This document shows, in pieces, positions 213 through 42,760 of a stretch of DNA of 53,347 nucleotides (positions are counted from its first letter, which is position 1; each line of letters begins with the position of its first letter). The DNA comes from Nemertoderma westbladi (Eukaryota > Animalia > Xenacoelomorpha), in NCBI GenBank assembly GCA_032718475.1, contig JAUCBJ010002816.1:1-53347 (forward strand). The letters are read 5' to 3'. The notes under the pieces are model-generated. The model was not told the DNA's origin, made no database searches, and saw only the letters and a list, made by a program, of their open reading frames with translations. The translations under genes and the position numbers were made by a program.

Positions 213-2083
213 CTACGCCCCTCTTGTGGGGCATTCTCTGCCCCCCCCCCCCCCCCCCCCCCCCCACTCGCCACTCCTTACTTCACTACCTCTTACTTCG
301 CTTCTACACCCCTCTCTAGTCGACGCACTATCTCTACTGCGGCTGGGTCTACTTACCCCCGCCTCTCCCTGTGCAACTGCGTGGCCTGGCAGGCTCACGT
401 CGGGTTGACTCACCCCCGCTGCTCCTTGCCTAACTACGTGGCCTTGCAGGCTCCCGTCGGGGTCTCTCACCCCCGCTACTCCCTGCGTACTAACTACGTG
501 GCCTTGCAGGCTCCCGTTGGCCAGACCACCTGTATCTCCTATATCAGTATTAATAGCCCCGTTATCAATATTATTATTTTCTAAATTATTCAAATTATTT
601 GAATTATTCTGTATATTTAAATTTAAATTATTATTCGAATTATTTTGAATATTTGAATTAGAATTATTTTGTACATTTAAATTAATATTAATATTTGGAT
701 TATTTGTATTTAAATTTAAATTACCGGGTAAAGGGTTATTTCCTGCAATGAAAGTTTGGTTAGGGTTGTCTACTACGGTACTATTAATATTAATTTCTTC
801 TAACGTATTATTATTACCCCCGCCCGTATGGTTACACCAGATCTGGTTCTGTCGTCCGGTGCCTGTAAGTGGGGTATTAACAAACGTTTCCATAACTTCT
901 GGCTCCTCGTAAATACTACCCGAGCCAGCCTCACTCTCTGATAGTCCCAACTGCGCCAGTTCTAGTCGGTGCTTCTGCTTGGCCTGATATTGCATAAGTG
1001 CCCTCAACCGGGCATGCATATCATCCCGGATGCGCTTTCCCGCTCTCTCTCTCTCTCTCTATCCTCTCGTAAACTTTGGTCGGCCAACTCTGCCTCCCTC
1101 GTCTCCCGCTCTCTACTCTCGTTCTCTACTTATGCCTATCGCTCTCTATGCTCGTTCTCTACTCTCTCTGCCCTCTCTTTATTCTTTCTCGCCAACTCTC
1201 TCTCTCTTTCTAATAACGCAGTTCCCTCATCCAAGTGCCTCTCTAATTCTTTCTGGTCTAGCGCCGCAATGTCTAGTTGACATGCCAGATCTATCTCTAA
1301 CACCGTTCTTGCTTTCGCGGAGGATGTAGCGGACTTATCGGTCACGACGGACTCCCGTCGCCTCTCTGTCCTACTAATTTTCCCCCGCGTTCTGGGGTTC
1401 TCGCTAACCGACGAGACCGAATCCTTGGGGTTAACCTCGGGTTCGCCCTCGTGCGGATCTGCCCAACCCACTAACTTAATTCCCCTAGCATCCACTAAAT
1501 ACAGCCCTACGTACACCACTTCAGGCTCCATAACCCTGGATCGCCACAGTTCGAATAGTTCGGTGGCGACCCCCCTCGCTCTCTCACTCGCCAGTTCTCC
1601 CTGCCCGAAACGGACTAGATATCTGAAATGTATATTCGACTCACCTAGCCGCAGGCTCAACTTCCCCTGGTTTACCTTCTCTCCCTCTTTGGCTTCCCTC
1701 AATAGTTTATTGGTGGCATTGTAGGCCCGTCGAAGCCGATCGCTGGTCCCGACGTCCTCTTCGCCGACATCTCCTCCTCCTCTCCTGGTTCGGCGTAGTA
1801 CCGGCGGCCCCACCGTCACCGTTCCGGTGGGCCATCCGTCGCCCTCGGCCTGTGGCTGGCCGGCGACTTCGGTACCTCGACCGCCGCCGTGCGTCGACTC
1901 GTCCCTTCCTTGTGATAGACGGCCGCCCTCCGCTTGGGCTGCCGGATCGTCTCTCGTCGACGAATCCGGCGTCGCAGGTCGGTACCATCGCGTCGCGGCC
2001 TCGTGGATCGTTTGGTTGGTATCGTCCGGGGTCTGCGGCGGTGTCCTCTCTCCCTCCGACAATCGTGGTTGTCCTGTGCTCAT
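213..2083 (-). pseudogene. gag: BEL/Pao gag N-terminal region with in-frame stops (~1130-1138) and a frameshift near the (CT)n tract at ~1045-1060
   Basis: ORFs 1136-2083 and 213-1019; coiled coil, Asn-rich tract and three 57-60 bp repeats (GSLQGHVV...) at ~350-525. Confidence 0.65.
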
Positions 2084-2126
2084 CTTGTCTGGCAGTCACA
2101 GTTTCGTGGTAGCTGGTATCTTTCAC

Positions 2127-2744
2127 TGTGACGGGATCAAGGGATCCCGACCGGTTTGTTAGACTACGCGTCACCGTGTGGTATTGAAATAAAATGGAAA
2201 TGGCAGTTTGTTGTTATCGCTTTGATATTCGTTGGTTACCATCAATAAATGAATAACAGATAATAGCACAGTTGATAGATTGAATTGACAATAGCAGTAT
2301 ACCGGTAGGTAGGATATATAATATGTAATGACGGTGACGGTGAAAGATGTCACCTGTCTGCACTCAAACTAATGACTGGAATAACTGAACTGACACCTGA
2401 ATGCATTGACAATATATGTAATCATTTCTACATTACCGTGGCCTTTGTCCAGTGGATGCTTTCCCCCGCTCCTATTGGTTGATAACCTACTTCACGCCTC
2501 TCACCTCTGTGGGAGTGCTCCCCCCCCCCCCCCTGTTGGCCCTTGTTGGTTATTTTTCCCTCTCGAGGTGGTTTGACCTCAAACCTCCCTTCGTGTGGCT
2601 TTCCCCGTTATTGGGTGTGATACGAGATTGGTTGTTATCAATCTCGTATCTCCAATATTGCGGGTCTCGTATCTCCAATATTGCTGAAAAGGTGCCACTT
2701 CCCAACTTTGTGAGGGTAATGGAGCGGAATTTAATCCGCTCACA
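2127..2744 (-). repeat. 5' LTR of element 1 (618 bp)
   Basis: Inverted termini TGTGA...TCACA; sharp junction with the satellite at 2745; TATA-like sequence (~2411-2418) about 30 nt before TCAGTT initiator-like motifs (~2383-2393) on the minus strand. The partner LTR is outside the window. Confidence 0.7.
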
Positions 2745-5518
2745 ATGTATGAGAAACACTCGCTCGTCAACTGAAACACACAGTATCTAACGTATGAGAA
2801 ACACTCGCTTGTCCACTGAAACACACAGGCTATAATGAATGAGAAACACTCGCTCGTCAACTGAAACACACAGACTCTAATGTATGAGAAACACTCGCTC
2901 GTCAACTGAAACACACAGACTCTAACGTATGAGAAACACTCACTCGTCCACTGAAACACACAGACTATAATGAATGAGAAACACTCGCTCGGCAACTGAA
3001 ACACACACACTCTAATGTATGAGAAACACTCGCTCGTCCACTGAAACACACAGACTATAATGAATGAGAAACACTCGCTCGTCAACTGAAACACACAGAC
3101 TATAATGAATGAGAAACACTCGCTCATCAACTGAAACACACAGACTCTAACGTATGAGAAACACTCGCTCGTCCACTGAATCACACAGACTATAATGAAT
3201 GAGAAACACTCGCTCGTCAACTGAAACACACAGACTCTAATTTATGAGAAACACTAGCTCGTCAACTGAAACACACAAACTCTAACGTATGAGAAACACT
3301 CGCTCGTCCACTGAAACACACAGACTGTAATGAATGAGAAACACTCGCTCGTCAACTGAAACACACAGACTCTAATGTATGAGAAACACTCGCTCGTCAA
3401 CTGAAACACATAGACTCTATTGTATGAGAAACACTCGCTCGTCAACTGAAACACATAGACTCTAATGTATGAGAAACACTCGCTCGTCAACTGAAACACA
3501 CACACTCTAATGAATGAGAAACACTCGCTCGTCAACTGAAACACAGACTCTAACGTATGAGAAACACTCGTTCGTCAACTGAAACACACAGACTCTTATG
3601 AATGAGAAACACTCGCTCGTCAACTGAAACACACAGACTCTAATGTATGAGAAACACTCGCTCGTCAACTGAAACACACAGCCTCTAATGAATGAGAAAC
3701 ACTCGCTCGTCAACTGAAACACACAGACTATAATTTATGAGAAACACTCGCTCGTCAACTGAAACACAGAATCTAATGTATGAGAAACACTCGCTCGTCA
3801 ACTGAAACACAGACTCTAACGTATGAGAAACACTCGCTCGTCAACTGAAACACAGACTCTAATGTGTGAGAAACACTCGCTCGTCAACTGAAACACAGAC
3901 TCTAATGTATGAGAAACACTGGCTCGTCAATTGAAACACACAGACTCTAATGAATGAGAAACACTCGCTCGTCAACTGAAGCACACAGACTCTAATGAAT
4001 TAGAAACACTCGCTCGTCAACTGAAACACAGACTCTAACGTATGAGAAACACTCTCATACACTATAATTTATGAGAAACACTCGCTCGTCAACTGAAACA
4101 CAGAATCTAATGTATGAGAAACACTCGCTCGTCAACTGAAACACAGACTCTAACGTATGAGAAACACTCGCTCGTCAACTGAAACACAGACTCTAATGTA
4201 TGAGAAACACTCGCTCGTCAACTGAAACACAGACTCTAATGTATGAGAAACACTGGCTCGTCAATTGAAACACACAGACTCTAATGAATGAGAAACACTC
4301 GCTCGTCAACTGAAGCACACAGACTCTAATGAATGAGAAACACTCGCTCGTCAACTGAAACACAGACTCTAACGTATGAGAAACACTCGCTCGTCAACTG
4401 AAACACACAGTCTCTAATGTATGAGAAACACTCGCTCGTCAACTGAAACACACAGAAACACTCGCTCGTCAACTGAAACACAGACTCTAGTGTATGAGAA
4501 ATACTCGCTCGTCAACTGAAACACACAGTCTCTTATATATGAGAAACACTCGCTCATAAACTGAAACAAACAGACTCTAATGTATGAGAAACACTTGCTC
4601 GTCAACTGAAACACACAGACTCTAACGTATGAGAAAAACTCGCTCGTCAACTGAAACACAGACTCTAATGTATAAGAAACACCCGCTCGTCAACTGAAAC
4701 ACAGACTCTAACGTATGAGAAACACTCGATCGTTAACTGAAACACAGACTCTAATGTATGAGAAACACTCGCTCGTCAACTGAAATACATAGACTCTAAT
4801 GTATGAGAAACACTCACTCGTCAACTGAAACACACAGACTCTAATGTATGAGAAACACTCGCTCATCAACTGAAACACTGACTCTAACGTATGAAAAACC
4901 CTCGCTCGTCAACTGAAACACAGACTCTAATGTATGAGAAACACTCGCTCGTCAACTGAAACACAGACTCTAACGTATGAGAAACACTCGCTCGTAAACT
5001 GAAACACAGACTCTAATGTATGAGAAACACTCGCTCGTCAACTGAAACACACAGTCTCTAATGTATGAAAAACACTCGCTCGTCAACCGAAACACACAGA
5101 CTCTAACGTATGAGAAACACTCGCTCGTCAACTGAAAAACACAGACACATACAGACTGTAATGTATGAGAAACACTCGCTCGTCAACTGAAACACAGACT
5201 CTAACCTATGAGAAACACTCGCTCTTCAACTGAAACACACAGACTCTAATGTATGAGAAACACTCGCTCGTCAACTGAAACACAGACACTAACGTATGAG
5301 AAACACTCGCTCGTCAACTGAAACACACAGACTCTAATGTATGAGAAACACTCGCTCTTCAACTGAAACACAGACTCTAACGTATGAGAAAAACCCGCTC
5401 GTCAACTGAAACACAGTCTCTAATGTATGAGAAACACTCGCTCGTCAACTGAAACACAAAGACTCTATTGTATGAGAAACACTCGCTCGTCAACTGAAAG
5501 ACACAGTCTTTAATGTAT
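2745..5518. repeat. 45/43-bp tandem satellite, about 60 copies
   Basis: Unit GAGAAACACTCGCTCGTCAACTGAAACACACAGACTCTAATGTAT, with 43-bp variants lacking one CA. Confidence 0.97.
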
Positions 5519-6609: not shown

Positions 6610-8741
6610 TGTTAAACGAACTACCCCGGCCTAACCAATAAAGACACAAAACTGCTCTATTTACTAGATGGGGCAATCAGGAGCGTATAATTACTAATGT
6701 ATGGTTTCAGGTACGGAAAACCACTACTTACCGTTGGATGGCGCTAATCTGCCGTCCGCTAATATATTTTACTTAATTTATACGACTCCTTCTAAATTCT
6801 CGTTCCTTTCTCTACCAATTACTCGATAGAGAGCTAACTGTTCGAATATATGAGCCACGCGGGAATAACCAAAAAATAAACCCGAATCGGCTCCCTAAGC
6901 TGACTTAAAACGAGTGTGAGAGATTTTACACTCAGAGTGTATTCTATAGCCTAATATTACTGTAAATTTGCGCTTACAACTACGTCCTTTCTAATCGCAT
7001 CTAATCGCAATACTGGGGTTCCCTAACGGAATGTGTGAATGTGAGAATATTTAAATAATCGAAAATCGGTACGGCAATTATTTCGGGACTCAAACTTATC
7101 TGCGGCTGGCTTTAGGCCAACAATTTACTGATGCGCGTTGCGTACTGTACTACGATGTGAATTTTGTCCACTAATTCAAATAACCGCCCAGCGTGAATAG
7201 TGTACGGTACTCTAAAATTATTACCTTAACTACCCTCCGCTATGCAGCGTACAAATTCTTAATTTTACTAATTAATTTCAGTCACAAATATGTAACGGCG
7301 TACTAAATACTAAGTATTCCAGAATGCGCAATTCTAAATTATTACGCAACGGGTCACACTAGCAACAGCCTAAGATACCGTATTATTTTCGACCTAATCA
7401 GAAATTAATTACAGTAAGCTAAGAAATAGAAATCAATCAAAGGGAAAGAGCGCCTATCCAAGCATTCGTGATTCATTAGGCACACTTTAGTAACGCACCA
7501 ATCAGCATAACAACAATCGCAATCTACAGTTTAGCTAGCAATTCACAACTCGCAATTCGCAACGTAAAGGACGCAGATCTCTCCCGGCTACGTCTAGGCT
7601 TCCTAACAAACCCAATTCCTGTCCCCCTAATACTACAAAAGAGAGACAAAACCTGGATCATCAGCCCCTAATTACTGAACCGGCGTACCTGACCCACTCT
7701 ACGCTGCAAACTTGCGCGCGCAATAGTAATCCCCCCAATGTTACTTGTCTTTGAATCCTCCGCACTCCCGTCGTCGCTAACCCCCCGATGCGCCCGCCGC
7801 GCTTACCGGTACCCTAGCCCTCCATCAGAATGAGTAGCTACCGTAGCGGCACATGCAAATCACAAAAGTCTGACAGTCTGAGAAATCCCGTAGGATTATT
7901 GTCGAAAGGAATCACATAGAACCATTTACTAAAGGGTAGAAATCATAGTTCCAACTTGTAATTAACAGCGATCATTGAGATTGATTGAGAAACACAAACA
8001 AGAATCAAACAGAAATTGCAAATTAGCGAATCATTGCAAGAAAATCAAAAGGGCAGTAATTTACACAGAAAAACTAAGCATCGAATAATAGTTGAAGGTG
8101 AGCTGTGTGGGGTGTGTGACTAAGCAGAATGTGAGATAGGTAACAATGGAAGTAGACCAATTTATAGGTGATTTGAGAAGGGTGATGCAATCGATCTCTC
8201 ATTGGCTCCCCAATCCGAGCTAACATCAGACCAACCTGGAAGCAGTTAGGCCAATAAGAGAGCCGGATTGTGGGCCTATAGCTCCCTGAAATCGTAAATT
8301 GCCACCATATAAGGTAATTTTCCCGATGCTTAATTTGGCGGTACTAATAATATCATGCACAAATATAAATTTAGCGCAATTATAGAGAAATTAAAACCAA
8401 TAGCTAGCCTCATCAAGGCTAATAACGGCAAGCCCAGATCCAGGGTCCAACAAGGACTTGCTACCCTGGAACTATCTACTTATATCCTATTAAAAAACTA
8501 CATAGGTAGGGCTACATACTATACAAAATGGATGAGTTCAAAATATATGGGCGTTTCAACTTCCTTATCTAAATATCATTGCGCGTTATGCCTTATCTAA
8601 ATAATTATACTGCATCACGGACTAATATATGATACTATATAATGGACTAATATATTATACTGTATAATGGACTAACATTATTATACTGTATAACGGACTA
8701 ATATATTACGTAATGTAGGTACAGCGCCATATACCGTAACA
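6610..8741 (-). repeat. 3' LTR (2132 bp)
   Basis: Near-identical to 22523-24431 (about 20 substitutions by eye); internal ~27-bp tandem repeats at ~8615-8710. Confidence 0.97.
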
Positions 8742-8752
8742 CCGCTCCAAGG
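8742..8752 (-). other. Weak polypurine-tract position (CCTTGGAGCGG|TGTTAC)
   Basis: Short G-rich stretch abutting the 3' LTR on the minus strand. Confidence 0.45.
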
Positions 8753-9244
8753 GAAATCATGCAATGTTTCCCTCCAATTGTAGAAGAGTGTAAGGCGATG
8801 TATACAAAATAAAATAACTCTCCTTCAAATAATCTAAATATCTTGATACTATACTATTTACAAATATTGCTATAGATATTGCATAATGAATTACATACAA
8901 ATTAAATTTACAAATATTATCTCTCTCAATGTTAACGATTATTACATACAAATTAAATTTACAAAAATACTGTTTCTCATTCGTTCTACATAATGATTAC
9001 TACATACAAATTAAATTTACAAAATACTTTCGAATTATAAAAATTTTGCTAGGGTAGGTGAAAGGAGTAAGCCAAACCCGCATGTTTGTCTCCCCAATCA
9101 CCTCCTTCGCCTCTCTCATAATATAAATCCAAATCAGTGCGACTAGTGTATATGAGTCAAGTCGGATATTTACAAATGCTACAATATACATCAGAGCGAC
9201 GATGATGTATATATCTAGAGTCTGTCGCCCCGTGATATGATGCA

Positions 9245-12200
9245 TTACTGACCCGCTCCTGGGTTCTTCGGGCTCGCTCCTCTCTTTCGCCCCCTACCCA
9301 GATACACCAATCGTCCTCCAGTTGACTCTGTTGACGTGGTCCATAAGGCGTCACTCCCCGGAACCGGCGACGATGTTCCCTGAGCTCTGACAGATTCCCG
9401 GCTAGTGCTTCGTCCTCGGCCTCGTCCCAATTGTCGTGCTCCTGTGGTCGCTTCCGCCAACTCTTCCTTTTGCAATTGCACGCGCGCCTTCTCCGACGCA
9501 CCCTGCGCCTTGCGCTACAATCGCTGAGCCTCTATAATCGAGTGATAGTGGTCGTCCTTGATTTGACGCTTGTCTTGGACCTCTCCTCCTGGTTCCTTCC
9601 GTGAGCCTTGAGCTCCAACGGTCGTCGTTGTGGGCGCTGCGGTTCGCTGTTCCTCGATCCTTTGAGCGGTCAATGACCCCACTGGTACGTGAGTCAACAG
9701 GAATTCGTTGCGGTATTGAATAGCCGCCATCCTCCAATCTCCTCGCGCGTGCACCACTTTCATAGTTTCCGAAAACAAACCCTTTGTAATACGGTCGCAA
9801 ATAGCAACAAAGTTCCAAGTGTACTTGTTGTCCATATTTAGTTGTCTGAAGTATTCCCGAACGACTATGACTCCAGTGTTCTGTGGAAGATCTTGAGCAG
9901 TTAGGATGAGCTCCTGATATTGTGGTAGCGACTGTAGATATGGTTCGTACGCAACATGTGACGGGTCTACCGCCCAAAGTCCATATCCCGCCTTAAATGG
10001 TAACCAACGCATCTGCGCTTGAATGTGGTAGTCAGCCACACTCTCCCACTTATCTAGCATCTCCCGAAGTAGGTTAGCGCTATGGTTCTGGAAGGAATCG
10101 TCTCGCAGTTGGCATCTCGCGCTACGATGTCCCTTTACTCCACAATATCCACATTGAGAAATGAAAACGGTGCACGTATGAAACGAATGGTCGGTCTCAT
10201 TGCACCAACGGCAGACCTTATGCGCCGCCTCCACTACAGTGTCGCACGATTTTTGATTGTGCCTTGTGCTGCCGCACAACTTGCACCTACGCGCTTGTGG
10301 AAACCAGGCCCTCTCGTATATGAGGTCTCCAATCGGTTTCGCACTTCCTTCTTTCCCAATGTCTAATACGATGTTGTCCTCTCCAGTTAAAGGTTGTCGA
10401 TCCGGAACAAAGTAAACATCCTCGCCCTTGTCCTCTATCTCCAATATTTCCTCCCGCGTTCGTTCAATAGCAAAATAAATAATAAAAATAAAATCGATAG
10501 CAAAATGTGCTATGAAGCCCATACCAGTCTTGGCAGAGTTGGGATACTCCCTATAAATTCCCATGTCTTGTGCCCATAGCAACAATAGCTTGGTGTCGAC
10601 AAACGGTCTCGGCAATCTATCTTCTAAATCAGTCATGGCGTTGAAGTCACTCTCCAAATCACTCTGGACTCCCGATCCCACCTTGACGTAATCTTGGCTA
10701 AGAATCGCCTCTCTAACCTTCTTGGGTAGCATCCTGGTGTCGATACGCTCCGCTCCGTGCATACCTCCTCGCCTGCATACCTCCAAAATCTGTTCCCTAG
10801 GATCCTTCCCCTTCCGATAATGTGTCGTGATTATGGGCTCCGGTCTCTCTCTATCTGCCCTTACGCGCATAAACACATGAGTCACACCATCGGTCGCGCG
10901 AATTTGAATGCACTTACTAGTCAAGCATTCCTGATGAGACCCTCCTTCATTGTCGTAAAACATCACTCTCCAATCTTGTAGTGATTCCTCCATTTTCCTC
11001 CACTGACGCTGAATCTCGTCGGATGGGGTCCACATGATCGATAGCCTTGTGGTCGTCATATCGGGTGTAAGATCCCTTTCTCCTCAGCCACACCTGGTCT
11101 ACCTCCTCGTCATCTGGGAATGTAACCACCGCGACCCATACCTTGATGTACTTTTCTAACCATCCAAATAACTTGCTCTCTTTTCCCGGAGCTCCAATCT
11201 TATCCAATGTGTCGTAGTCTGTGATCTGCATCGGGACATCACGCAAGAACTTCGCGCATAAAACGTCCCATAGACAGTCGACGTTCCAATGATCCGACAT
11301 CCTCACCATCGGCAAGAATCTAATCGCTTCTCGCGACTCCGGGTGATCTACCAATATCGCAGGTTCGCTACCGTCGGAATAATACACCGGTCGGGGTTGA
11401 GATACGGCCTGTGGAACAAATCCGGTCACTCTCCTCGTCTCCTCTTGATGTCTATCCGCGGTCTTATTATATTCCGCTATCCGCGCTTCGAATAATTGTT
11501 TCGCCTTCGCCGCTCGCTCCTCCTGCCGCAACGCGTCTATGTCGTCCTGATGCTCAGGCGTGAGTGTTCTCGCTCGATGAGGCAAAGTAATGTAGTCCAG
11601 GGACTCGAGAGCTCCAAACCCGCAGGTTTGGTACCCGAGTCCCGTGCCGCTTCGCGCCGCGCCTCTAGGTCCTTGTAGGCTCGGTACAGCGAAATGGCCG
11701 CTGCTGTCTCTATCAAACTGGGTGTCGAACAGGGTTTAATCTCCGTATACGGATCTAAAGTCGTAACGGTCGGCGTAATGGGTCTTGGAGGTCGCTTTCC
11801 GCTGAAGTCGATACTGATCATCGGGTTGCTCATTGGGTAACCTCCCTCGTTATATCTAAGGAACTGATGAGCTTGGCATCGCGTTAATATCGGTTCGGGA
11901 TGTTGCTCGTCCAATCGGTCGGGAATCGCCACGTCTTGTTTGTTCATGCATTCACCACATTTGTAGAACAACTTGTATACACTGAAGACCTTCGACGTCT
12001 CTTGATCCTCGCTGCGAGTCCTCCGATACAGATGCATTCCGTCGAACTGATCTCGGACTGCAGGTAGCGGCTCTTCGTGTCGTAAATACATATTCATGTG
12101 GTACAGCCGCGCAATCTCCTCATCCGGGTCTGCGCTAATGTTGCACACGTCTAACGCGAAATCGTAGGGATACCGAGTGCGATACTCTTTCCGCAAAACT

Positions 12201-12403
12201 TCCATATGGTCCCCCAACGCTCTCATTCTTTCCCTCCTTAATTCTTTATCATAAGCGGGTTTATATTTCCCATTTAGCTCCATCACCGACCTCCCGTGGT
12301 AGTAAACATTCGAATCCTTACATCCCGGTCGGGCAAATGGCAGCTCCGCCTCCTCTCTGGCAGTAAATCCTCTCCGCGGTTGCGCTCTAATTTCCTTCTC
12401 CAT
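9245..12403 (-). pseudogene. Accessory ORF3 of element 2: unknown N-terminal region, DEDDy (WRN/RNase D-like) 3'-5' exonuclease and three CCHC knuckles; two probable frameshifts and one in-frame TAG
   Basis: Overlapping ORFs 11537-12403, 10947-11585 and 9515-11059; after TAG (9515-9517) the frame stays open to 9245. Motifs FYDNEG (ExoI), LPKKVREAILSQDYVKVGSGVQSD (ExoII), FVDT, GMGFIA; knuckles CKLC-H-C, CRWC-H-C, CGYC-H-C. Confidence 0.8.
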
Positions 12404-13099
12404 TATGCGCCGCGTATATACATATATATATCCCAATAAGGTTCTGTTACGTAACTAATTACACTGTGGGTAAATCAGTTAGATGTCGCCGAAGGACAGA
12501 CCTCTTGAGCCCCCCCCCCCCCCCCCCCCCCCGCCTTACAGCAGTTCAGGTTCGACTCTCTAGATCCCGTCTCATTCCTAACTATCCTCTAACATATTCC
12601 CATGCATAGCGCAAAAACTTCGGAGATAAACTGGCCGTGACCAACTCACTTTTTGATGCCCAAACTACTCCCATTACTTGTACTAAACTACAGTAGTTAG
12701 AAAGGACCATAATCTCAATGCTCGACTATACCAAACCCACAGGTTTGATAATCGAACATCACACTTCACTGCAAACTACTAAGTGGGGTCCGTGTACGCC
12801 CTGATGCTACTAACCTTTAGCACCTTAGTTGTACTGCTGGCACCAATCTGTGGCAGTTGCTAAACTCAATTTACACTCCTACGTAATATAGCCGTCACCA
12901 TGGTTTCTAAATGCTATTTTCCTGGCTTCACGACTTTTCAAATTACTGTATATCTATAGACGAATTCTAAAACGTGTCTATACACAGCGTCTGGAATTGT
13001 CTTGTGTTCACTTCTAATTTTTAAAATTTTTTAATTTTCCAAAATTTTGAAAATAAAATTTTATTTGGGGAATGCATACGAAGTGAGTTGCGTCCAACA

Positions 13100-14458
13100 C
13101 TAATTTTTGTTAGAGGCAGGAGACAAATTATAATCTCCTGTCTCGATGCGTGTCTCCTCTAATAACACGATATCTTGGACCGGTCGGTCCAAGGTGTGTA
13201 AACCATTAGTTTTACACTTCTTTGGGTGCGGACACTTGCACCTAATTTTCACAGTGACTGTGCGCACTATGTTTTGCACGTCTGGGTGTGTGTGCAAGAT
13301 GACACCGGTTTCCCAATACTTTCTCTTGACAATCGGTTCGGTTATCAATACGTAATCTCCCCTTTGGAGACTCTGAACCGTTTTGTACCACTTTGTTCTG
13401 GTGGATATGGTGGGAAGATAGTATTCCCGCCAATATTCCCAGAATGTGTACGCTACGAATTGTGTCATTTTCCAGCTCTTACGACTATATAGGTCGGCAC
13501 TAATGGGATCTGATGTCGGCACAAGAAATGCTGGACTCTGCATTAGCAAATGATTCGGCGTTAATGCAACACCGTCTGGCAACATAGCTATCGGCCTCGA
13601 GTTTAGTGTATGCTCGATTTCGATGAAAGCTGTGACCAGTTCGTCATCGGTAAGTTGTATATTTACAGGCAACGTTTTGGCAATGGCCTGTTTTACAGAG
13701 CGAACTAAACGCTCCCAACTTCCTCCTCTCCAAGGACTTTCTGGAGTATTAAATCTCCATTCTATTCTTTGCGGCAAAAGTGCTGCAGAAATTTCCTTAT
13801 TCCGTGCCGCTTTGTGAGCCGCGTTTAACTCGCTGTTCCCTCCGACAAAGTTTGTACCCTTATCGGAGTAGAACGCCTTTACTAGTCCTCTTCTGGCCAT
13901 AAATCTCTTTAAGGCCAGGAGCAGAGATTTGGTCGACATGTCTGCCACACGCTCAATGTGTATGGCTCTACTAGCCATACATGTCAGTAGCAGGCCCCAT
14001 CGTTTGTGGGTCAGCCGTCCACTCTTTGCCTCAATCGGACCAAAACAATCCACCCCTGTGTTCGTAAAGGGTGGGTCATATGCCTGCACTCTCGCTTCCG
14101 GGAGTTCAGCCATCTCCTGTTCCAATACTCTGGCGTTCACCCTCTTGCAAACCAGACAGGCGTCATACATAGTGCCTACTGCCCTGCTTGGCTGCAATAG
14201 AATGAATCGCTGTCTCGCTGCCGACAAACAGTGTAACTTTCCCGCATGATGCAACCTCTTGTGTATATCCCATAGAATCGCTCTTTGCAATTCTATTGGG
14301 TGACTAGGGATTATCACTGGGAACCTAAACTGTGAGTTTATGTCGACAGTCTGGATTTTCGATCTATGACAAATTAAACCCTTATGGATTAATGGACTAA
14401 ATTTAATAGAGAACTGGTCGTTGAGCCGATAATAGATGGAATTCTTTTGGGAAGGCAC
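13100..14458 (-). pseudogene. pol: BEL/Pao integrase, separated from RT/RH by frameshifts (linker fragment 14503-14736)
   Basis: HKRLHH...CLVC zinc finger; DDE triad in VDCFGP, SDKGTNF, GGSWERLV; LNSRP, LTPNHLL and FW..W..EY BEL motifs. Confidence 0.93.
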
Positions 14459-14714
14459 ACATTTGATAATGCTTCAAATGCTTTAATTCCGCTTGATCAA
14501 TTTCATCCTCTGTCAGAGGTTGTTTCGCTCTGAATTCGCTCACTATTAGTGCTCATTTGTTCTCCCAAATGTTTCGAATGTTTTATACAAAGGTACGAAA
14601 TGTATCGGCTTAACCACGCAGTTCTTTTACAAATTGTCAGCCAAGAGGCAGACGAATTTAGTAATTTGTCATAAATACTACATGGCTCTAATGCCAGCGA
14701 CGGTTGTCCGCTAA

Positions 14715-17573
14715 TTAATGGAAGTTTCGAATCCAAACCAAAGGCTCCATTTTGTCGGTCATTTTCATTCCATCACTTACCAATTGTGACTCTGGTTTAG
14801 TCTGTAAGGGTGGTTTTATGTCATAACTTACCCTTCCGGACCTAGTACTCACGTAAGTCTGTTGGTCTGACAGGTCTCTAGGCCGCTCCAATGACTCTTC
14901 AGGCCGCTCCAATGACTCTTCAGGCCGCTCCAATGACTTGAGTTTGGCTTTAGACTTTGACTTAGAGACTTTCTCCACCTTGACTTCTGCATCTTCAGGC
15001 ATCGGATTGGTCACTATCTTTAGTCGCTCTGGCCAATGTTCCTGTGTCCTCGTTAGAAAATCAGGCCCATGCAACCAAAACTCCTGCGACTCTTCCTGAC
15101 AGAATTCCGCCGGCATTGCACCTCTCGAAGTTATGTCGGCCGGGTTCAACACTCCCGGACAATGTCTCCATTGTTCCTTCGTCGAAAAGTCAACGATCTG
15201 AGCGCCTCTGTTGGCCACAAATGTCTTTAGTGCAATATTGTCGGCCGCAATGTATACTAACACTAAGGATGCGTCCGTCCAATAGAATAAGGTCAATGTC
15301 GTGTCTAACTCCTCTGTTATCTGCCTACTTACCTCGACTGAAACTACAGCCGCCTGTAACTCTGCACGAGGGACAGTCATGTATTTGACCGGCATTGTCT
15401 TTGATCTAGAAGTCACAAAAGCCGTCTCAAATTTATCCTGACTTACCTCTCGGCGAAGGTAGGCTACCATACCAAAGCCGGTGTCACTTGCGTCACTAAA
15501 TAAATGGAGTTCGAGATCAGCTGGGAATACCAGCTGATTCGGAAAGTAGGAGCGGGGTACATCTATGTTTTTCAATAGATGCAACTCGGCTTCCCACTCT
15601 CTCCACTGCTTTGTATGTATAGGAGATATTGGTTCGTCCCACTCTAGGTCGGACAACCAAATTTTCCTCATGCACGCTCGTGCCTGTAATATTACTGGAC
15701 TGATAAAGTTCATCGGGTCAAATAGTCTACTTAATGTCGATAAGCAAATTCTCTTAGTCAAAACTTTATCTGGGCTACTGGGCTCAAATCTAACTCTTAC
15801 CTGGAATTTATCCGTGTTCGGATTCCAAGCGAGTCCCAGTACTCGCGCCATGGGGATGGGTTCTACCCCCAATTCTATGTCTCCGCTCCCGCGATCCTTT
15901 ACCGGGAACGACTCTAATAGGGCCTCCGAGTTCGTAGTGAACTTGGTCAGAGGAAATCCCCCTGTAGCCAAGCACTCTTGCAGGCCGTGAGCCACTTCTA
16001 TGGCTTGTTCTGCCGCGTCCTTGGACACCAATCCGTCGTCCATATAGAAGTTTCTCAAGATGGACTCGATTACTTCTACTGGATACTTACCAATCTGGGC
16101 TGTTGCCGTTTTCTTTAGAACAAACAGCGTGCCGTTTGGACTATCGCGGGCGCCAAATATCCTAACGTACATTTGGTATGTAACCACTGGGCCGGATATG
16201 TCTTCATTCTCGTACCAGAGAAATCGAAGGCTATCCTGGTCTGCCTTACAGGCTCTTACCTGGTGGAACATCGCCTCGATGTCACAAGTAAACACGAATC
16301 GCCGCTGTCTAAAACGCAACAGTATTCCTATCAAATAATTATTCAGGTTGGGACCATCCATCAACTCTGAATTCAGGGACATACCTCTATAGACTGCTGC
16401 GCAGTCGTTGACTACTCGGACTTTGTCAGGCTTGTCAGGGTGAGTCACATAGTGGTGTGGGAGGTAATAAGTCTGGTCTGTCACTAAGACAGGGTCCTCT
16501 ACCTTCCCAGCAAATCCCTTGGCGAAATAGTTGTTGATCTGGGCGCAATACTTCTCCCTAATGTCCGGATTCTTTAGCAACCGAGCCCTTACTCCGTTCA
16601 ATCTTTTTAAGGCTAAGCTGTAGTTGTTCTCCAACTTAGGAGGTTGTCGACGCCACAACATTCCAACTTCAAAATGTCCAGTCGGTAGCAAACGTATGGT
16701 GTCTTCCATCATCTCCAGCGACCGTTTCTCATCAGTGGACATGGCTAGGTCATATCCACCGGGTTCCATTGCGTCCCTATCCAGCCATTCGACGGTTCTA
16801 GCTCCTGTCTCGAGGTCCTGGCGTATCAATTCCTTCTGTAGCTCCTCCTCACTGTATTGGAAAATGTCGAGGTCGCGATATTTAGCCACCTGACCCTCCA
16901 CTATGTCGGTATAAGTCAAAACGTTACTCAGATAAGTAGCGTGGGCCGCTGAACCAGACCCACGGGTCTGATAACAGTAGTCCTTGGGTTCACTATCTGT
17001 CCGGTCGTTGTGAAGTGGTTCCGACAACCTAACATTATCGGGAATCAACTCCTCGTCTGACTCGCTAAAGTCACTATAGTGGTCAATACAGGTTCTCCTA
17101 AACTCGTCTATGTCTGGTAGTTCTACTAACGGTGGTTGAGTTATAGGCTGTAATTCGTCGTATCTGTCTATTGGCTTGTCGCCACCTGTAAACTCATAAG
17201 ACATGGGTACTCTTGTATACCAACCTAGTATAGTCCTATGGGCATGTGGTCCATTGACATGCGGCTCAGCTGGTCTCGTTTCCCATATTTGGTGTGCGAT
17301 CAGCTGTTCTGCACCAATCAACATAGAAACATTCCTATAACCTACCTGGTGTCTCGGTATCCTGAGCTTGTCAAAATACTCCTGTGCTATGGGACTCATC
17401 GGCGGCACCTTACCTAACTGCCTGCCGAATCCCTTCATAGCTAGACACTTAAATCCGTCCAATGGCAAAGGTCTTCGTTCTTGTCGAGTGTGTTGGTCTC
17501 TCGGAAGTAGGGAGTCTAGTTCTACCGAAATTCTGTGTCCCTTGAGGTCTCCTACTCCATGCATAGACTTCAA
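14715..17573 (-). pseudogene. pol: BEL/Pao protease C-terminal part, reverse transcriptase and RNase H
   Basis: YLPHH, KVRVVNDCAA, SLNSELMDGP, DIEAMFHQV, FGARDSP, NFYMDD; RNase H FSDAS, PRAELQAA, WTDAS, NPADITSRG; 21-bp triple repeat at ~14880-14938. Confidence 0.95.
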
Positions 17574-17597
17574 CTCTATTTGGATTTCCTCGGCGTC

Positions 17598-20500
17598 CTA
17601 GAAGCTAGAAACGGCTCTCGCCACTTCCTCGTCGATATACGATAATGTGGACGCAGTGTCCAACATCACATATATTCGCTTAGATCCCTTATCGCCAGTA
17701 AGTTTCACCGGAATCACGCTAAATATTTCCGACGTGGCCGATGATAAATACGTCCGCGCGCTGGTCGATGAACTATCCGCGGTGAAACCTTGGCAGGTCA
17801 CCTCTCTTGCGCTCAACTCGCCATCCTCGTCCGACGAACCTGGTTGATAACCATCGTCCTGAATGCCGGTATACGTATTTCTTCTTATCGATACGGGTTC
17901 TTCGCTCCCCTTCCTGTGAGGATTTCGCTGTAAGTAACGGTCCGTTGGGGTGTGAAAATCCGCATGTAGCAACTTGTGATGTAGTCTGCCGCATTCCATA
18001 CATCCGTCCTTACTGTTCGGGCACTGCCGCCGTACATGACCTGGCGCAAGACATGCCCAACAGGTGTCCAACGTCCGCACTTGAACTCTTCTCTGTTCCG
18101 AATTTAATTCTTTGAACCGTCTGCAACTATCTAACTTATGGTCGTCAGATCTTACCTCCTTTAGTAAACAGTATTGGCAACCTACAAATCCATCCGGCAA
18201 CTCCTGTTGCTTTAACCTAGGTCTATCTAACCGCTCACCTGACCATACTCGCGAGTCTGATCTAAAGGCTGGGGTAATCGAATTATATCTGTCTACTGAG
18301 TTAAATGTCACAGTGGTCCTGTCATCGTCAAAACTTACCATAGACTTACCGGTAACAGGTTTAGACTCTCTCATATTCTCCTCTGAGAAGTTTGATTTCA
18401 TCTCTGCTACTGCGTCTGTGGCTATCATGTCATGAATATGCTGAAGTGTCAACACCTCACCTTGACCATCCAACTTATTCTCTAATTTGCGCCATTTCTG
18501 TCGGTAACGCATGTTTAAACGTCTTATTACGCTCTTTAAATCTTCGGCGTGATCACCATGATGAGGTAGATTCACCATCCTCAAGATGTCCAATGCGTTC
18601 GAAATAGCGTTCGCTAAGTTCAACAGCTCTAACGGAGTTGTAATCCTTCTGCCCTTACCCAAGTCTTCCACTATCGACTGTGCCATCTTGGTTTTATTCC
18701 CGTAGATGTCGCTAAGCGTCTTCATTGCCAACTCAAATGCCCTTTCATTGCCGACGAAGTTATCAGCAATGGCTCTAGGTTCTCGATGGAGCATCTGAAG
18801 CAAATAGTTGAACTTCTCGTTGGGAGTAAAGGTGCTGTTGGTTAGCTGCTCGTCGACATAGGTTTTAAACGTCCTCCAATGCTTATGGTTGCCCATAAAC
18901 TTCTGGGGTTGTTGCGTCGGCAGTCCTTGCCTAGCAGCAAACTTACCTATGTCCCTAAGGATTGCGTCGTTCCGGGTTAACAAATGGTTTAGTTCCGCAG
19001 GGTTGTTAAGTCTGGTCCTTTCCCGGGGATTGAGACTTACCTGCTCCGCGTCCGTCCTTCTTTCCTTATAGTTTCGGGACTTCTGACGTCTCATGTCTTC
19101 CTCTTCATCACTTGATTCGGTGTCATTCCTTAGCGCTTGCGATGGTTTGCGCACCGAGGCCCTGACCCAGGCGTCCTGAATAAACTTTTCGGCTGAATTT
19201 TCGAAATCGGGATTATGGATATTTGGGACAGGCGTCCTTACCAGAGGTCTATGTGGTATAGTCTCCTCCGATATGCGTACTCGTTGACTAGGTTGGACTT
19301 TATCTAACTCAGGCCTGCTAGGATTAGAATTACTTCTTACCTGGGCTGCTTCCTTTAACCGTAGGTTGCTAAGCATGTCCGTTATAGGTTGGATGTGCGG
19401 CGATATAGCTTGCGCTAAACTAGCACTTAACTCATCCCTCGTAATAAATTCCTGGCTAGGGTTCTGTTGTATAGTCGGCTCTATCTGAGTAATCCGCTGT
19501 CTCTCATATGATCCCTCTTCCGGTTTAACCCGGAAGTTCTCCGTCGAACTGGGTCGGCGCTCCGTCCGCGTATTCCAAACCCGCGGGTTCGGTTCGCCCA
19601 ATACTCGGCCCGTCAGAGTTTCTCCTCTAAACTCTTCGTTGTCTCGTTCGGTATGTAGTGGTGCGGTGCGCTGATACGCTGGATTCTGCGCGATAGGTGA
19701 AGCACTAATACCAATTGGCGTGCGATATGTAGAGAACGGTTTAGCGATCCGTGTACTCGTAATAGCTGGACCGTGTATAGGAATTCTGATCGTCGTCGAC
19801 TCGCGTATGGTCGGAGTTCTCGCTTCCTGTTCGGCCTTCTGCAGTGCGAACAGTTCTCGCAACTCAGTCCCTACACTTGCCCCACATTCTTCGATCATTC
19901 GCATCCCCTTCTCGGCGATTTCATTCGCCTTCCTGGTCCGTTCCTCGCTCTCTAGGTTTAATCTCGCACTTTCCAACTGCGCCAGTTTACGTTCTTCTTC
20001 TTCCCTCGCTCGTCTCGCTGCGCTCTCTTCTTCCACACGCGCCTTTTCTTCATACAACGCTTGTCGCTCTTTCTCGATCTCGAGTTCGCGTTCCTTGCAT
20101 TCGCGTTCAAGTTCGAGTTCGCGTTCCTTCTGTTCGCGTTCGAGCTGGAGTTCGCGTTCTTTCTGTTCGTGTTCAAGTTGGAGTTCGCGTTCCTTCTGTT
20201 CGCGTTCCGCTCGCTCACGCTTACCCTATCTTCCAACTCGCGCAACTTTGCGTCTAACTTACGTGTTCGCTCCCTTTCCCGCTCGGCTTCCTTCCGTGCT
20301 TCCGATGCACGCAAAACTTCCGCCTGTTGTTCGTCCAATCGGCGTCTTCTCTCCTCCGCCGAATTGTGAGAAACAAGGGATCTAGCACATATAACTTTAC
20401 CTCGCGCGTGACTAACCTGGGAATTGCCACTGCCTCTAGATGCGTCGTCGGGTGGAGTTAACGTTCTCAGTTGGATATTCTCCGTCGTCGGTAGCATCTG

Positions 20501-21367
20501 ACCCGGTACCACCACTCCACTCTGCATCAGCCAGCTGGTAACTTCCCGCTGATAACGGCGCTCCTCCTTATCTTGCGTCTCTTCTCGCTCCACTAAATCT
20601 CTCGACTCTGCGTCACTCACCTGAGTCGCCTGCGCTTGTGATGCCCATAGCAGCCAGTTCTCCGTCCTAACTCGTCGGAATCGCTCCGATAACGTGCGGT
20701 GCTCCAACAAGGCTGCTAAAACCCTGTCGTAAATCCTCGTCGCCACGTCGTTCGACTGAGACTCTACTGCCTTCTTCGCTAGGACTGCAAGCTCCTCCGT
20801 CTGGTTGAATAACGCTGAGTTGTATCCTCTTCTAATCTCTACTAACCCTTCCCTTCCGATGTTCGCTGAGTCGGCTAACATCTTCCTTACCTTGTCCGCC
20901 GTCCGGGTTATATGTCCGGCATGCGCGCGAAGTTTTTTCTTTATCGCGATATCAAGTTCTCTCTCGCTTACCTGACTCACACTTGGTGGACTTGAAGGAT
21001 TATTTCTGGAACTATGGGTACTCCTTTTAGCCGCTGGGACCACGGCACTTACCATACCCACAGGTCTGGAAACCGGGCTCCGGGCTCTCGCTTCTGCTAC
21101 ACTACCCTCCCTATCACTCACCTCTGGTTGGGTTGCTGTACAATCCTTCCTTACAGTAGCGGTAGGGGATCCTAATACTATTACCTGAGGTGGTTCTTCT
21201 TCCTCACTAGTTACTGTCTCGTCCTCCTGTTCACTTACGTCAGCATCACTCGCTGCGTCATCATAGTCGGCATTGTCGTCAACAGTAATATTAACGCTAT
21301 CGTCAGTCGGCGGTTCTGCCGCCGTCTCATAGCTGTCCTCTAGTGCCTCCTTCTCTGAGGCACTCAT
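17598..21367 (-). pseudogene. gag: BEL/Pao gag and aspartic protease active site; frameshifts at ~20225 and ~17610
   Basis: EREQKERELQL coiled-coil repeats; KFMGNHKHWRTF capsid-like region; three Cys/His knuckles ending CMECGRLHHKLLH; protease motif VMLDTAS. Confidence 0.93.
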
Positions 21368-22522
21368 AGTCTAAATAATATTTGCCTTCCGGCAAAAATA
21401 TATCTCGCAAAAGTTCGAGATATATATATATATAATTTAATCGAAAATACGATCAAATTATTTGTCAAATATCCAATTGTCCAAAATGTCAAAATAAATT
21501 CGCAATGCAATATTGTGAATTTAATGGTGTATAGTTATAGCAAATACCGGTATAATATTTAAACAAAATATTATTATATAGTTATTATATAGTATTTAAA
21601 TACCGGTATGACACAAATAATTTTTTGAATCTAATACAAAATATTCAAAATAAACTTGCCACCCGAATATTTCTAATTTTACATAGATAACTCTAATCCA
21701 CGCAATTTTAATTTCAAATATTATATGTATCCACTAGCGCGTGGCTACATCTTCGGGTTGCGACTCTCTCTCTCTCTCTAACTCGAGCGATTCAAAAACC
21801 CATGGTCGGCTAAACCTAACTATCCTAACTAATAAATTGAGTTCACCTTCGCAGTTAAACAACCGATAATTTTTTACTGCTTCCACAAACACAATGGTGC
21901 CAACATAACAACTAACCTTGTTTGCTGTGAGATTCCACGTCCGCGTCCAAAGTTTCAGTCCTTTCGCTGATTGCAAACCGAACCCGCAGACCCACACGAA
22001 CCCCAAACTCAGAAGCTCCGTCTTGCCATGTATCTCCAGATGGTATAAAATAACTAAGCGGTTATCCAACATACCGGTACAAAACTCTAGATTTTATTAC
22101 AAAATAATTTTGACCAAAACTGAATTCTCACAAACCTAGCTAAAAATTTCAAAAAACTTACTAATTACGGCCTGCCCTAACGGCCTAAGGAACCGCTGTA
22201 TTTGTGATTAGTAAACGCACTACCGTATATCCACTGTACGCAATACAGTAAGTAAAACAGTACACCAACCTAACAGCCTAATGAATACTGTGTGCGGTAC
22301 AGCAAAACAAATGTATTTTCTACTTGTATGCAGTAACAGCAATCAGCCTAATGTACTACTGTACTATTGTACGCGACCAGTGAATACAGTAATCTAACTT
22401 AACAGCCTAAAGAATACACTTGATGTTCTACCGTACGCAGTACAGTGCCTAATACAGTAATCTAATTAGTACTTTCTGACTTTACTGTACGCAGTACAGC
22501 AAAACACAAAAACGTCCTTTAC

Positions 22523-24431
22523 TGTTAAACGAACTACCCCAGCCTAACCAATAAAGACACAAAACTGCTCTATTTACTAGACGGGGCAATCAGGAGCGTA
22601 TTACTACTAATGTATGGTTTCAGGTACGGAAAACCACTACTTACCGTTGGATGGCGCTAATCTGCCGTCCGCTAATATATTTTACTAAATTTCTACGACT
22701 CCTTCTAAATTCTCGTTCCTTTCTCTACCAATTACTCGATAGAGAGCTAACTGTTCGAATATATGAGCCACGCGGGAATAACCAAAACAATAAACCCGAA
22801 TCGGCTCCCTAAGCTGACTTAAAACGAGTGTGAGAGATTTTACACTCAGAGTGTATTCTATAGCCTAATATTACTGTAAATTTGCGCTTACAACTACGTC
22901 CTTTCTAATCGCATCTAATCGCAATACTGGGGTTCCCTAACGGAATGTGTGAATGTGAGAATATTTAAATAATCGAAAATCGGTACGGCAATTATTTCGG
23001 GACTCAAACTTATCTGCGGCTGGCTTTAGGCCAACAATTTACTGATGCGCGTTGCGTACTGTACTACGATGTGAATTTTGTCCGCTAATTCAAATAACCG
23101 CCCAGCGTGAATAGTGTACGGTACTCTAAAATTATTACCTTAACTACCCTCCGCTATGCAGCGTACAAATTCTTAATTTTACTAATTAATTTCAGTCACA
23201 AATATGTAACGGCGTACTAATTACTAAGTATTCCAGAATGCGCAATTCTAAATTATTACGCAACGGGTCACACTAGCAACAGCCTAAGATACCGTATTAT
23301 TTTCGACCTAATCAGAAATTAATTACAGTAAGCTAAGAAATAGAAATCAATCAAAGGGAAAGAGCGCCTATCCAAGCATTCGTGATTAATTAGGCAAACT
23401 TTAGTAACGCACCAATCAGCATAACATAACAACAATCGCAATCTACAGTTTAGCTAGCAATTCACAACTCGCAATTCGCAACGTAAAGGACGCAGATCTC
23501 TCCCGGCTACGTCTAGGCTTCCTAACTAACCCAATTCCTGTCCCCCTAATACTACAAAATAGAGACAAAACCTGGATCATCAGCCCCTAATTACTAAACC
23601 GGCGTACCTGACCCACTCTACGCTGCAAACTTGCGCGCGCAATAGTAATCCCCCCAATGTTACTTGTCTTTGAATCCTCCGCACTCCCGTCGTCGCTAAC
23701 CCCCCGATGCGCCCGCCGCACTTACCAGTACCCTAGCCCTCCATCAGAATGAGTAGCTACCATAGCGGCACATGCAAATCACAAAAGTCTGACAGTCTGA
23801 GAAATCCCGTAGGATTATTGTCGAAAGGAATCACATAGAACAATTTACTAAAGGGTAGAAATCATAGTTCCAACTTGTAATTAACAGCGATCATTGAGAT
23901 TGATTGAGAAACACAAACAAGAATCAAACAGAAATTGCAAATTAGCGAATCATTGCAAGAAAATCAAAAGGGCAGTAATTTACACAGAAAAACTAAGCAT
24001 CGAATAATAGTTGAAGGTGAGCTGTGTGGGGTGTGTGACTAAGCAGAATGTGAGATAGGTAACAATGGAAGTAGGCCAATTTATAGGTGATAGCTAGCCT
24101 CATCAAGGCTAATAACGGCAAGCCCAGATCCAGGGTCCAACAAGGACTTGCTACCCTGGAACTATCTACTTATATCCTATTACAAAACTACATAGGTAGG
24201 GCTACATACTATACAAAATGGATGAGTTCAAAATATATGGGCATTTCAACTTCCTTATCTAAATATCATTGCGCGTTATGCCTTATCTAAATAATTATAC
24301 TGCATCACGGACTAATATATGATACTATATAATGGACTAATATATTATAATGTATAATGGACTAACATTATTATACTGTATAACGGACTAATATATTACG
24401 TAATGTAGGTACAGCGCCATATACCGTAACA
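22523..24431 (-). repeat. 5' LTR (1909 bp) with a ~229-bp deletion relative to the 3' LTR
   Basis: Alignment by eye; the segment matching 8172-8400 is missing at ~24090. Confidence 0.97.
24037..24087 (-). promoter_or_regulatory. Putative LTR core promoter (TATAAA plus initiator-like CACATTC/TTAGTC)
   Basis: CCTATAAATT on the minus strand at ~24078-24087, with initiator-like motifs ~30-45 nt downstream; same site at ~8160 in the 3' LTR. Confidence 0.45.
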
Positions 24432-25960: not shown

Positions 25961-26740
25961 ATTCGTTAATTAAGTTGATTACGTATTACGTAGTTGATTA
26001 AGTTGTATAAAACAGCATTTTGTCTACAGTCCTTTATTGGAAATTAATTATTTTCTAATATAAGATTTTTTATTAGATTTATCATGATTTATAAGAGCAT
26101 TTTCAACCTGCCTCTTAAAAGGATAGTAATATATAGTTTTTAATTAGTTCAATAGATTTGCTTTAAGAAATGTGTTTTTAATTGATCTAAACGTAATTAA
26201 CTTATTGAAATGCCCAGTCTCATAGCTCCCTCCTTCCTTGGCATGCTTGCCTAGCTTGGAAGGGGAACCAGTCCAACCACAAACCTCACCTCTACTCAAC
26301 GGCAGCATTGTAATGAGCCAGACTAATAAGTCAGCTTGTTTATTGTTTTTAGCTTACAAAATGATTGGCCGAGTACTTAATCATGATTCTTTAGTATAAT
26401 TAGCGGATCTAGGACACTTCCCCCCCGGACACTTCCCCCCCGGACACTTCCCCCCCGCCCAAGTAGGACACTTCCCCCCCGGACACTTCCCCCCCCCGCC
26501 CAAGTAGGACACTTCCCCCCCCCGCACACTTCCCCCCGCCCAAGTAGGACACTTCCCCCCCAGTTAAAGTGTTAAAATTAATCTGGGTGCATCAAAGCAA
26601 TAAACAAAAGTTAAAGATGGTTACAGGACAAGTTGTATCTAGTTTTTTCAAAATTATAAAAGAAACATTTTTATAGTCAACTTTTGTTTGTTTTTCTTTT
26701 AATTCCTTTAATTCTTTTAATTACTTTTAATTTCTTTTAA

Positions 26741-26930
26741 TTGGGGGCTGCCGCCCCCAAACCCCCGCTTCTTTTGTTGGGGGCTACCGCCCCCAAACCC
26801 CCGCTTCTTTTCTTGGGTGCTGCCGCCCCCAAACCCCGGCTTCTTTTGTTAGGGGCTACCGCCCCCAAACCCCCGCTTCTTTTCTTGGGGCCTGCCGCCC
26901 CCAAACCCCCGCTTCTTTTCTTGGGGGTTA
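26741..26930. repeat. 36-bp tandem repeat, about 5 copies, each with a GGGGG-CT(G/A)CCG-CCCCC hairpin
   Basis: Read directly. Confidence 0.9.
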
Positions 26931-27002
26931 TCGCCCATTCATTGTGTCAAGTACAATGCACACATCTCCAACCAGACACTATATAACATTGGAGGTGTCT
27001 CA

Positions 27003-42682: not shown

Positions 42683-42760
42683 GGGGCCGTGCACAAATTA
42701 TGTCGCGGTCGAAGGGGGGTGGGGGGGGGGGGGGGGGGTGGGGTTGTTGCAATTTTATGA
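42683..42760 (+). mobile_element. PIF/Harbinger-like MITE left end
   Basis: GGGGCCGTGCACAAAT; inverted counterpart at 45308-45324. Confidence 0.5.

Follow-up and report, generated by a model that had tools for sequence, protein, structure and literature searches.

An element bearing long terminal repeats (LTRs) near the left end of a contig of Nemertoderma westbladi appears to prime its reverse transcription in cis with an internal, intron-less piece of its own RNA and not with a tRNA. The element (element 1) is likely, although not surely, a member of the BEL/Pao superfamily, and the proposal, which is drawn from sequence comparison and predicted folding, is given a probability of about 0.68; self-priming of either kind, whether in cis or in trans, is regarded as very probable. 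The window (the whole stretch of DNA that was analysed, 53,347 nucleotides in length) contains two minus-strand LTR elements, element 1 and element 2. An initial annotation of the window had described a real LTR edge in element 1, the lack of a tRNA-type primer-binding site (PBS), a complement of the PBS encoded by the element itself and covariation between the two, and this core is supported by the analysis. The features of element 1 are as follows.

2127 to 2744, minus strand: 5′ LTR, 618 bp, TG...CA; supported by loose contig ends with mixed flanking sequence before 2127 and by the satellite from 2744
2118 to 2126, minus strand: predicted PBS GTGAAAGAT, abutting the LTR, without TGG; common variant at 2120
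2340 to 2348, minus strand: predicted 3′ end of the self-primer, ATCTTTCAC, exact complement of the PBS with no intron; common variant at 2346, which pairs with 2120
2331 to 2339, minus strand: arm A of helix 2, adjoining the predicted primer end on its 3′ side; all nine bases complementary to 2177-2169
2169 to 2177, minus strand: arm B of helix 2, in the LTR's terminal part, at the edge of the block conserved among copies
2132 to 2149, minus strand: predicted 7-bp hairpin by the LTR end, U5-IR-like; six inner pairs at 0.98-1.0, common variant 2140 in the loop
2333 to 2354, minus strand: predicted rival local hairpin (2354-2349 with 2338-2333), with the primer in its loop; incompatible with helix 2, and the winner in two of four folds
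2368 to 2478, minus strand: promoter-like landmarks from a motif scan only (CCAAT at 2478, TATA-like at 2416, TCAGT at 2393 and 2388, TTAGT at 2372)
1136 to 2095, minus strand: first open reading frame (ORF), gag-like, with ATG at 2083 and the motif VNPKDSVS
213 to 1058, minus strand: second ORF, of low complexity and in another frame, without a Pfam match

The 3′ edge of the LTR had been placed at 2127 on the basis of its TGTGA/TCACA ends only, and comparison with other genomic copies had been proposed as a check. The boundary is now fixed independently by such copies: in public runs that carry the same organism label, their contigs turn into mixed flank sequence before 2127, and among the matches listed (24 of 186) these loose ends were found in at least 11 contigs in run X1, at least 13 in X3 and at least 2 in X5, where X1 and X3 represent one sample. 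Agreement of the flanks beyond 2127 was 0.42 in X1 and in X3. The 5′ edge at 2744 is the start of a 45-bp satellite, so that element 1 is represented by a single TG...CA LTR with both edges supported; a second copy of this LTR is absent from the window. Some contigs agree up to the LTR end and on through 2-6 bases of the PBS (2121-2126 and 2125-2126) before they diverge, and these may be subfamilies with another PBS, or 3′ flanks.

At the LTR end the minus strand reads ...GATCCCGTCACA followed, across the edge, by GTGAAAGAT, with the letters and coordinates that had been claimed, and within 40 nt past the LTR neither element 1 nor element 2 has a TGG-type (tRNA) PBS. The exact complement reported inside the LTR, at 2348-2340 and ending in AC, was likewise confirmed and is unique in the window, as each of the two 9-mers GTGAAAGAT and ATCTTTCAC occurs there once. 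The initiator-like motifs upstream of it were also recovered: TCAGT starts at 2393 and 2388, 45 and 40 nt before the complement. In 5000 Markov resamplings a 9-mer complement of this kind arose by chance with p 0.0026 at offset 0 and 0.0094 at any offset from 0 to 5. A contiguous match of 9 nt was also reached in 7 of 210 cross-pairs, one of them involving element 1's own PBS, and the 9-mer on its own is therefore only modest evidence that needs further support; its length lies below the 10-15 nt of the relatives. The LTR contains no AATAAA or ATTAAA after the primer. Its best splice donor scores 5.6 as against a median near 10.4 in the relatives, and for lack of a strong donor element 1 is grouped with the intron-less forms; an intron able to lengthen the primer was sought in elements 1 and 2 and none was found.

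Further support comes from the surroundings of the match. The claim that the pairing stops at the LTR edge holds, since the next position would set C2339 against A2127, but it had been missed that a second helix (2339-2331 with 2177-2169) stacks upon the first: helix 2 consists of nine perfect base pairs that abut the primer:PBS helix (p 2e-4). A predicted fold beginning at 2393 contains all three helices, with a primer:PBS pair probability of about 0.9, and this three-duplex arrangement is predicted from starts at either 2393 or 2348. The folding models are nevertheless mixed in their support, which is fragile and dependent on the folding window: the primer:PBS pairing reached at least 0.5 in only 48 of 120 choices of start and end and fell near 0 with long leaders, its competitors being the local hairpin and a helix between the LTR end and the leader. 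The overall fold of the element 1 region is of ordinary stability (z -1.25). Immediately 5′ of the primer a GAC/GAT triplet is predicted to be bulged, with 2-4 further PBS pairs beyond it, in loci L049, L030, L032, L051 and L046 and in element 1 (2351-2349), as judged by eye with no control.

Variation among copies of element 1 also touches the pairing. Within the PBS, C to T at 2120 accounts for 39, 61 and 69% of depth in X1, X2 and X3, and within the complement, G to A at 2346 accounts for 33, 48, 34 and 59% in X1, X2, X3 and X5. The two are partner positions at which the new letters still pair, the alleles being unphased, and the chance that such unphased variants would pair is about 1 in 9. 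Among the variants listed (40 of 127), that at 2120 is the only one within the PBS and that at 2346 the main one within the complement, and a lesser variant at 2343 (3-6% of depth; 41% in X5) is without a partner. The letter at 2355 differs in most of the depth, and the change lengthens the rival hairpin. Depth over the primer block in X1 is about 3100-3460 as against 280-1070 on its flanks; the summed depth is raised at 2325-2372 and very high at 2127-2158, and similarity among the copies breaks off at 2177/2179. Compensatory covariation had originally been read from the two LTRs of the window, where it is not readable because the LTRs of elements 1 and 2 do not align; as had been noted, they are unlike (618 bp as against 1909 and 2132 bp), with no blastn match between the element 1 LTR and the element 2 3′ LTR at E<=1. 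Covariation does find support in the 2120/2346 pair within the element 1 family, and among relatives in 24 loci, chosen because they match, which carry 21 distinct PBS 10-mers, each matched by its own LTR.

The placement of element 1 in BEL/Pao is a likely one, weakly shown by its gag-like motif, because the pol region would lie outside the window, off whose left end the element appears to run. Among 192 ORFs of the window its first ORF was the sole match of a profile built from BEL/Pao loci (E 0.02); 26 of 1000 local shuffles scored as high, the motif occurring in none of them, and the VNPKDSVS motif class is present in 23 of 80 related BEL/Pao loci. Homologues of the ORF were found neither in a metagenome scan nor in protein searches.

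Element 2 offers a second instance of the arrangement within the window, with the following features.

6610 to 24431, minus strand: whole element, LTRs 98.5-99.1% identical
22523 to 24431, minus strand: 5′ LTR, 1909 bp
6610 to 8741, minus strand: 3′ LTR, 2132 bp, with the same contiguous primer segment at about 7573-7564
22512 to 22522, minus strand: predicted PBS GTAAAGGACGT, without TGG
23470 to 23493, minus strand: predicted self-primer (23492-23483) and the arm after it, paired to the LTR end with the terminal A bulged out
13100 to 21370, minus strand: gag-pol in four ORFs, with DUF1759, Peptidase_A17, Integrase_H2C2 and DUF5641 domains

These domains assign element 2 to BEL/Pao, and its protein is about 40% identical to Peptidase_A17 polyproteins; the domain search gave no match to a chromodomain. 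The copy is broken by an in-frame stop (17598-17600) and by frame breaks. Its LTR pair has TG...CA ends, and since it lies within a (CATTA)n array a 5-bp target-site duplication there is trivial. The match length of 9 originally given for element 2 was corrected to ten Watson-Crick pairs plus one G-U, contiguous (p 0.0016-0.005). In the predicted duplex the terminal A of the LTR is bulged at the 3′ end of the primer, and the duplex between primer region and LTR end is the best of a scan of the LTR (-29.9 as against -24.8 kcal/mol for the next). A PBS-like decoy in the LTR (22894-22904, minus strand) is predicted to pair with the primer segment in about 45%, roughly half, of the ensemble; in the 3′ copy the segment could be kept engaged in this way, and the local hairpin may do likewise in element 1. 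Neither AATAAA nor ATTAAA occurs between the primer and the end of the LTR, only AGTAAA. Strong splice-donor motifs are found in the LTR at 23725, 22891 and 22644 (minus strand), and with an acceptor-like site at 23552 (60 nt ahead of the primer) they outline a candidate intron which leaves the primer unsplit. About 228 bp with CCAAT-like motifs in the 3′ LTR (8173-8399) are missing from the 5′ LTR. After the integrase, about 3 kb of extra ORFs (9515-12454, minus strand) include CCHC-knuckle-like repeats (lin-28 match, E 0.2) and a stretch which, by eye, we take to be 3′-5′ exonuclease-like; these ORFs gave no significant match in Pfam or PDB. A scan of viral contigs with the element 2 reverse transcriptase (RT) gave no match, and in the RT tree the element sits on a long branch (1.49) and is not placed.

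Both elements lie in tandem arrays, element 1 abutting the 45-bp satellite (arrays at 2744-5518) and element 2 within (CATTA)n (6064-6607/24432-24890), and targeting of repeats is a possible explanation. Elsewhere the window carries elements with terminal inverted repeats at 35638-39160 (with a DUF7869 ORF), 26410-28095 and 42577-44955, and two uninterrupted methyltransferase ORFs (O-methyltransferase; class I SAM type) at 41143-42186 (plus strand) and 47839-48750 (minus strand), in repeat-rich surroundings.

A scan with an RT-RNase H alignment yielded 80 BEL/Pao loci, and in these it was found that most readable relatives have their complement split by a predicted intron, which the earlier reading had missed. 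For 13 family representatives the LTR 3′ end had been set beforehand from the divergence of the two copies, picked by eye (L024 was left out as a duplicate of L028). Eight of these carry a complement of 10-15 nt whose two halves meet only if a putative GT-AG intron is taken out of the LTR, two carry a contiguous complement of 11 nt, two (L045 and L068) have TGG sites and no complement, and the remaining locus, L073, has a split complement only if its LTR end is moved by 8 nt; matches in these fixed-end loci start 0-4 nt past the LTR end. None of 210 cross-pairs reached 10 nt across a junction, a null that is weakened by three LTR pools without a candidate junction. The TGG site of L045 (408-419) is the same as the tRNA-Met PBS given for GalEa copia elements in the accessible part of that report (PMC3587641). 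Under a blind fixed rule with a GTAAG donor, 20 of 61 representatives (the 80 loci minus 19 near-duplicate rows) gave a match, 18 of them with at least 11 nt, as against 1 of 61 in the reversed control; one of the 20, the L031 match at 905, was rejected as chance since it lies in coding sequence, and in many of the 41 misses the LTR is absent from the contig. A looser blind search reached 11 in 33 of 80 loci as against 11 in the reversed and 2 in the complement control (a ‘same’ control was discarded as invalid owing to self-matches), and because of this noisy control the fixed-end test and the fixed rule are relied on instead. With only GT..AG required, the donor was GTAAG in 13 of 48 matches; in 22 chosen cases the introns measured 71-426 nt and 19 had the GTAAG donor.

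In elements 1 and 2 an intron of this kind is absent and the complement is contiguous in both. Re-examination of 26 loci added L047 (11 nt), L080 (13 nt) and perhaps L078 to the intron-less cases; the control gave none. On the tree the intron-less L047 is sister to the intron-bearing L050, and the splice label, assigned by eye from the looser search and with 35 rows unlabelled, shows no more clustering than in shuffled data, where 142 of 500 sets were as low. In L057 one LTR (130-160) has the acceptor site and the other (6900-6940) is without the intron and joined exactly at the junction, the two being only 88% alike, so that the contig may be chimeric. Most families retain the intron in both of their LTRs. 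In 15 of 19 relatives a poly(A)-type signal is found 6-93 nt past the primer and ahead of the PBS, which places the primer in R, and predicted primer:PBS pairing exceeded 0.7 in 9 of 19 spliced as against 1 of 19 unspliced RNAs, being at most 0.05 in 7 of the 19 spliced ones.

The cis reading can be set out as a series of steps. Transcription of element 1 would start near 2391, to judge from the CCAAT, TATA-like and TCAGT motifs, and the primer segment would then lie about 45-50 nt inside the RNA. This segment would fold back and pair with the PBS, the duplex being stacked upon helix 2 and next to the terminal hairpin, and the RNA would be cut after the AC at 2340 to leave a 3′-OH, probably by the element's RNase H, by analogy with Tf1; minus-strand synthesis would proceed from the cut primer into the LTR end. 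In retroelements generally, the new PBS is copied from the primer during plus-strand synthesis. Such copying would keep PBS and primer matched, and would explain both a PBS that mirrors the spliced joint and the paired variants. The strong-stop DNA would cover only sequence after the cut, so that the rest of both new LTRs would come from the 3′ copy: an unspliced 3′ copy would retain the intron, and a spliced one would cause both LTRs to lose it, as in element 2. Since an LTR intron splits the segment in most readable relatives, their primer would exist only after splicing, and elements 1 and 2 would be intron-less forms, probably derived from a 3′ LTR copy spliced before reverse transcription. 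It is about evenly balanced whether, more broadly, a large part of BEL/Pao has dropped tRNA priming for a primer assembled by the spliceosome, in which splicing of the 5′ copy would license reverse transcription, the unspliced 3′ copy would pass the intron on, and elements 1 and 2 would be processed LTRs that escape this gate, their PBS and primer kept matched by copying.

The main rival, which we consider unlikely, is that the primer acts in trans: a short RNA transcribed from the LTR only, whether 5′, 3′ or solo, and spliced if it has the intron, would be trimmed or cut so as to end in AC and would anneal to an unspliced genomic RNA at its PBS. It accounts simply, and as well as priming in cis, for the persistence of introns in both LTRs of most families; the poly(A)-type signals close behind the primer in the relatives would suit it, although element 1 has no canonical signal there, and the depth of LTR ends, far above internal depth, fits many extra LTR ends. 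Helix 2 of element 1 and the long duplex of element 2, however, link the primer flank to the LTR end, as a cis fold would. Rather improbable is a pairing that is real but structural or regulatory, hiding or presenting the leader for packaging, translation or dimer formation whilst another primer is used. Alternative folds do compete with the pairing, and in fungal GalEa a conserved hairpin takes the place of the PBS with, in the portion of that account available, no known priming model (PMC5445492); against this, matches in the fixed-end loci begin within 4 nt of the LTR end, their length of about 11 nt is like that of Tf1, and the complement replaces TGG sites, whose carriers are without it.

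Priming by a tRNA fragment is very doubtful. Half-tRNAs prime in some copia elements, according to the part of the source consulted (PMC6317226), yet such a fragment leaves unexplained why the LTR holds a copy of the complement, as well as the diversity of PBS 10-mers among the relatives and the sequence of element 2. ARAGORN found no tRNA genes in the window, and Rfam gave two sub-threshold matches only. The last seven letters of the element 1 complement resemble what we take to be the anticodon loop of tRNA-Glu(UUC), and both common alleles fit this loop, which speaks for a fragment. Least credible is that the 9-nt match of element 1 is chance; the cross-pairs of the same length and the ordinary fold stability point that way, and they are opposed by the paired variants, the island of depth, the adjoining perfect helix and the recurrence of the arrangement in element 2 and the relatives. 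Priming in cis by the element's own RNA is retained as the preferred reading.

The closest known parallel is found in Tf1, in which the RNA's opening 11 bases pair with the PBS within a three-duplex fold and are cut off by RNase H, as given in the accessible parts of these reports (PMC7175516, PMC10085805, PMC4600332, PMC5341516). Like the elements described here, Tf1, Tf2 and Tj1 of the Tf1/sushi group (Ty3/gypsy chromoviruses) have no tRNA PBS, and about 11 nt encoded in the LTR pair with the site that follows it (PMC7175516, PMC10085805, PMC4600332, all in part); the neighbouring duplexes predicted in element 1, including the hairpin at the LTR end, resemble the Tf1 ‘pretzel’ as far as it is described there. 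Unlike Tf1/sushi, element 2 carries the domains of BEL/Pao and gave no chromodomain match, and unlike in Tf1 the primer would be internal, about 45-50 nt from the start, with an intron splitting the primer segment in most relatives. The elements stand outside the Tf1/sushi group by membership, yet on the self-priming reading would be similar in working. Self-priming is described for Tf1/sushi and the Tcn1 gypsy elements and is predicted for the Houba/Osr-1/TAR copia elements (PMC6317226, in the sections available); for the plant Houba/Osr-1/TAR copia and Tcn1 gypsy elements, as here, the prediction comes from complementarity between PBS and LTR, but these belong to other superfamilies and hosts, and the same sections mention no primer intron for them (PMC6317226). 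The Conserved Hairpin Site of fungal GalEa copia elements is similar in that a conserved complementary pair replaces the PBS, and differs in that both arms lie downstream of the LTR, with no LTR complement found, in the excerpts of that paper (PMC5445492).

BEL/Pao has been reported only from animals, according to the accessible part of one source (PMC3601003). Within it, Achilles has a tRNA-Tyr PBS (PMC4580426, in part), and tRNA-primed members of this kind share superfamily and layout with the elements described here, L045 and L068 having TGG sites; elements 1 and 2 differ in having no TGG within 40 nt and in carrying their own complement. The terms primer, tRNA, PBS and intron are absent from a BEL/Pao survey (PMC3118150), tRNA and PBS are absent from the Sinbad paper (PMC554778), and the portions seen of two further papers (PMC8220671 and PMC3286476) add nothing on BEL/Pao priming. 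Searches of the openly available full-text literature returned no report of self-priming or of an LTR intron in BEL/Pao in the text they reached. In this literature BEL/Pao priming is by a tRNA site or is not mentioned, and self-priming is known for gypsy and copia groups. The natural sets of intron-less and intron-bearing forms (L047 and L050, the two L057 LTRs, elements 1 and 2) make the proposal testable from RNA alone. An internal primer encoded by the element, if true, would bring self-priming to BEL/Pao as the third of the LTR superfamilies and would account for members of it without a findable PBS. A primer that depends on splicing would make the opening step of retroelement DNA synthesis dependent on the host spliceosome, and would presumably also evade silencing by tRNA fragments aimed at tRNA-type sites.
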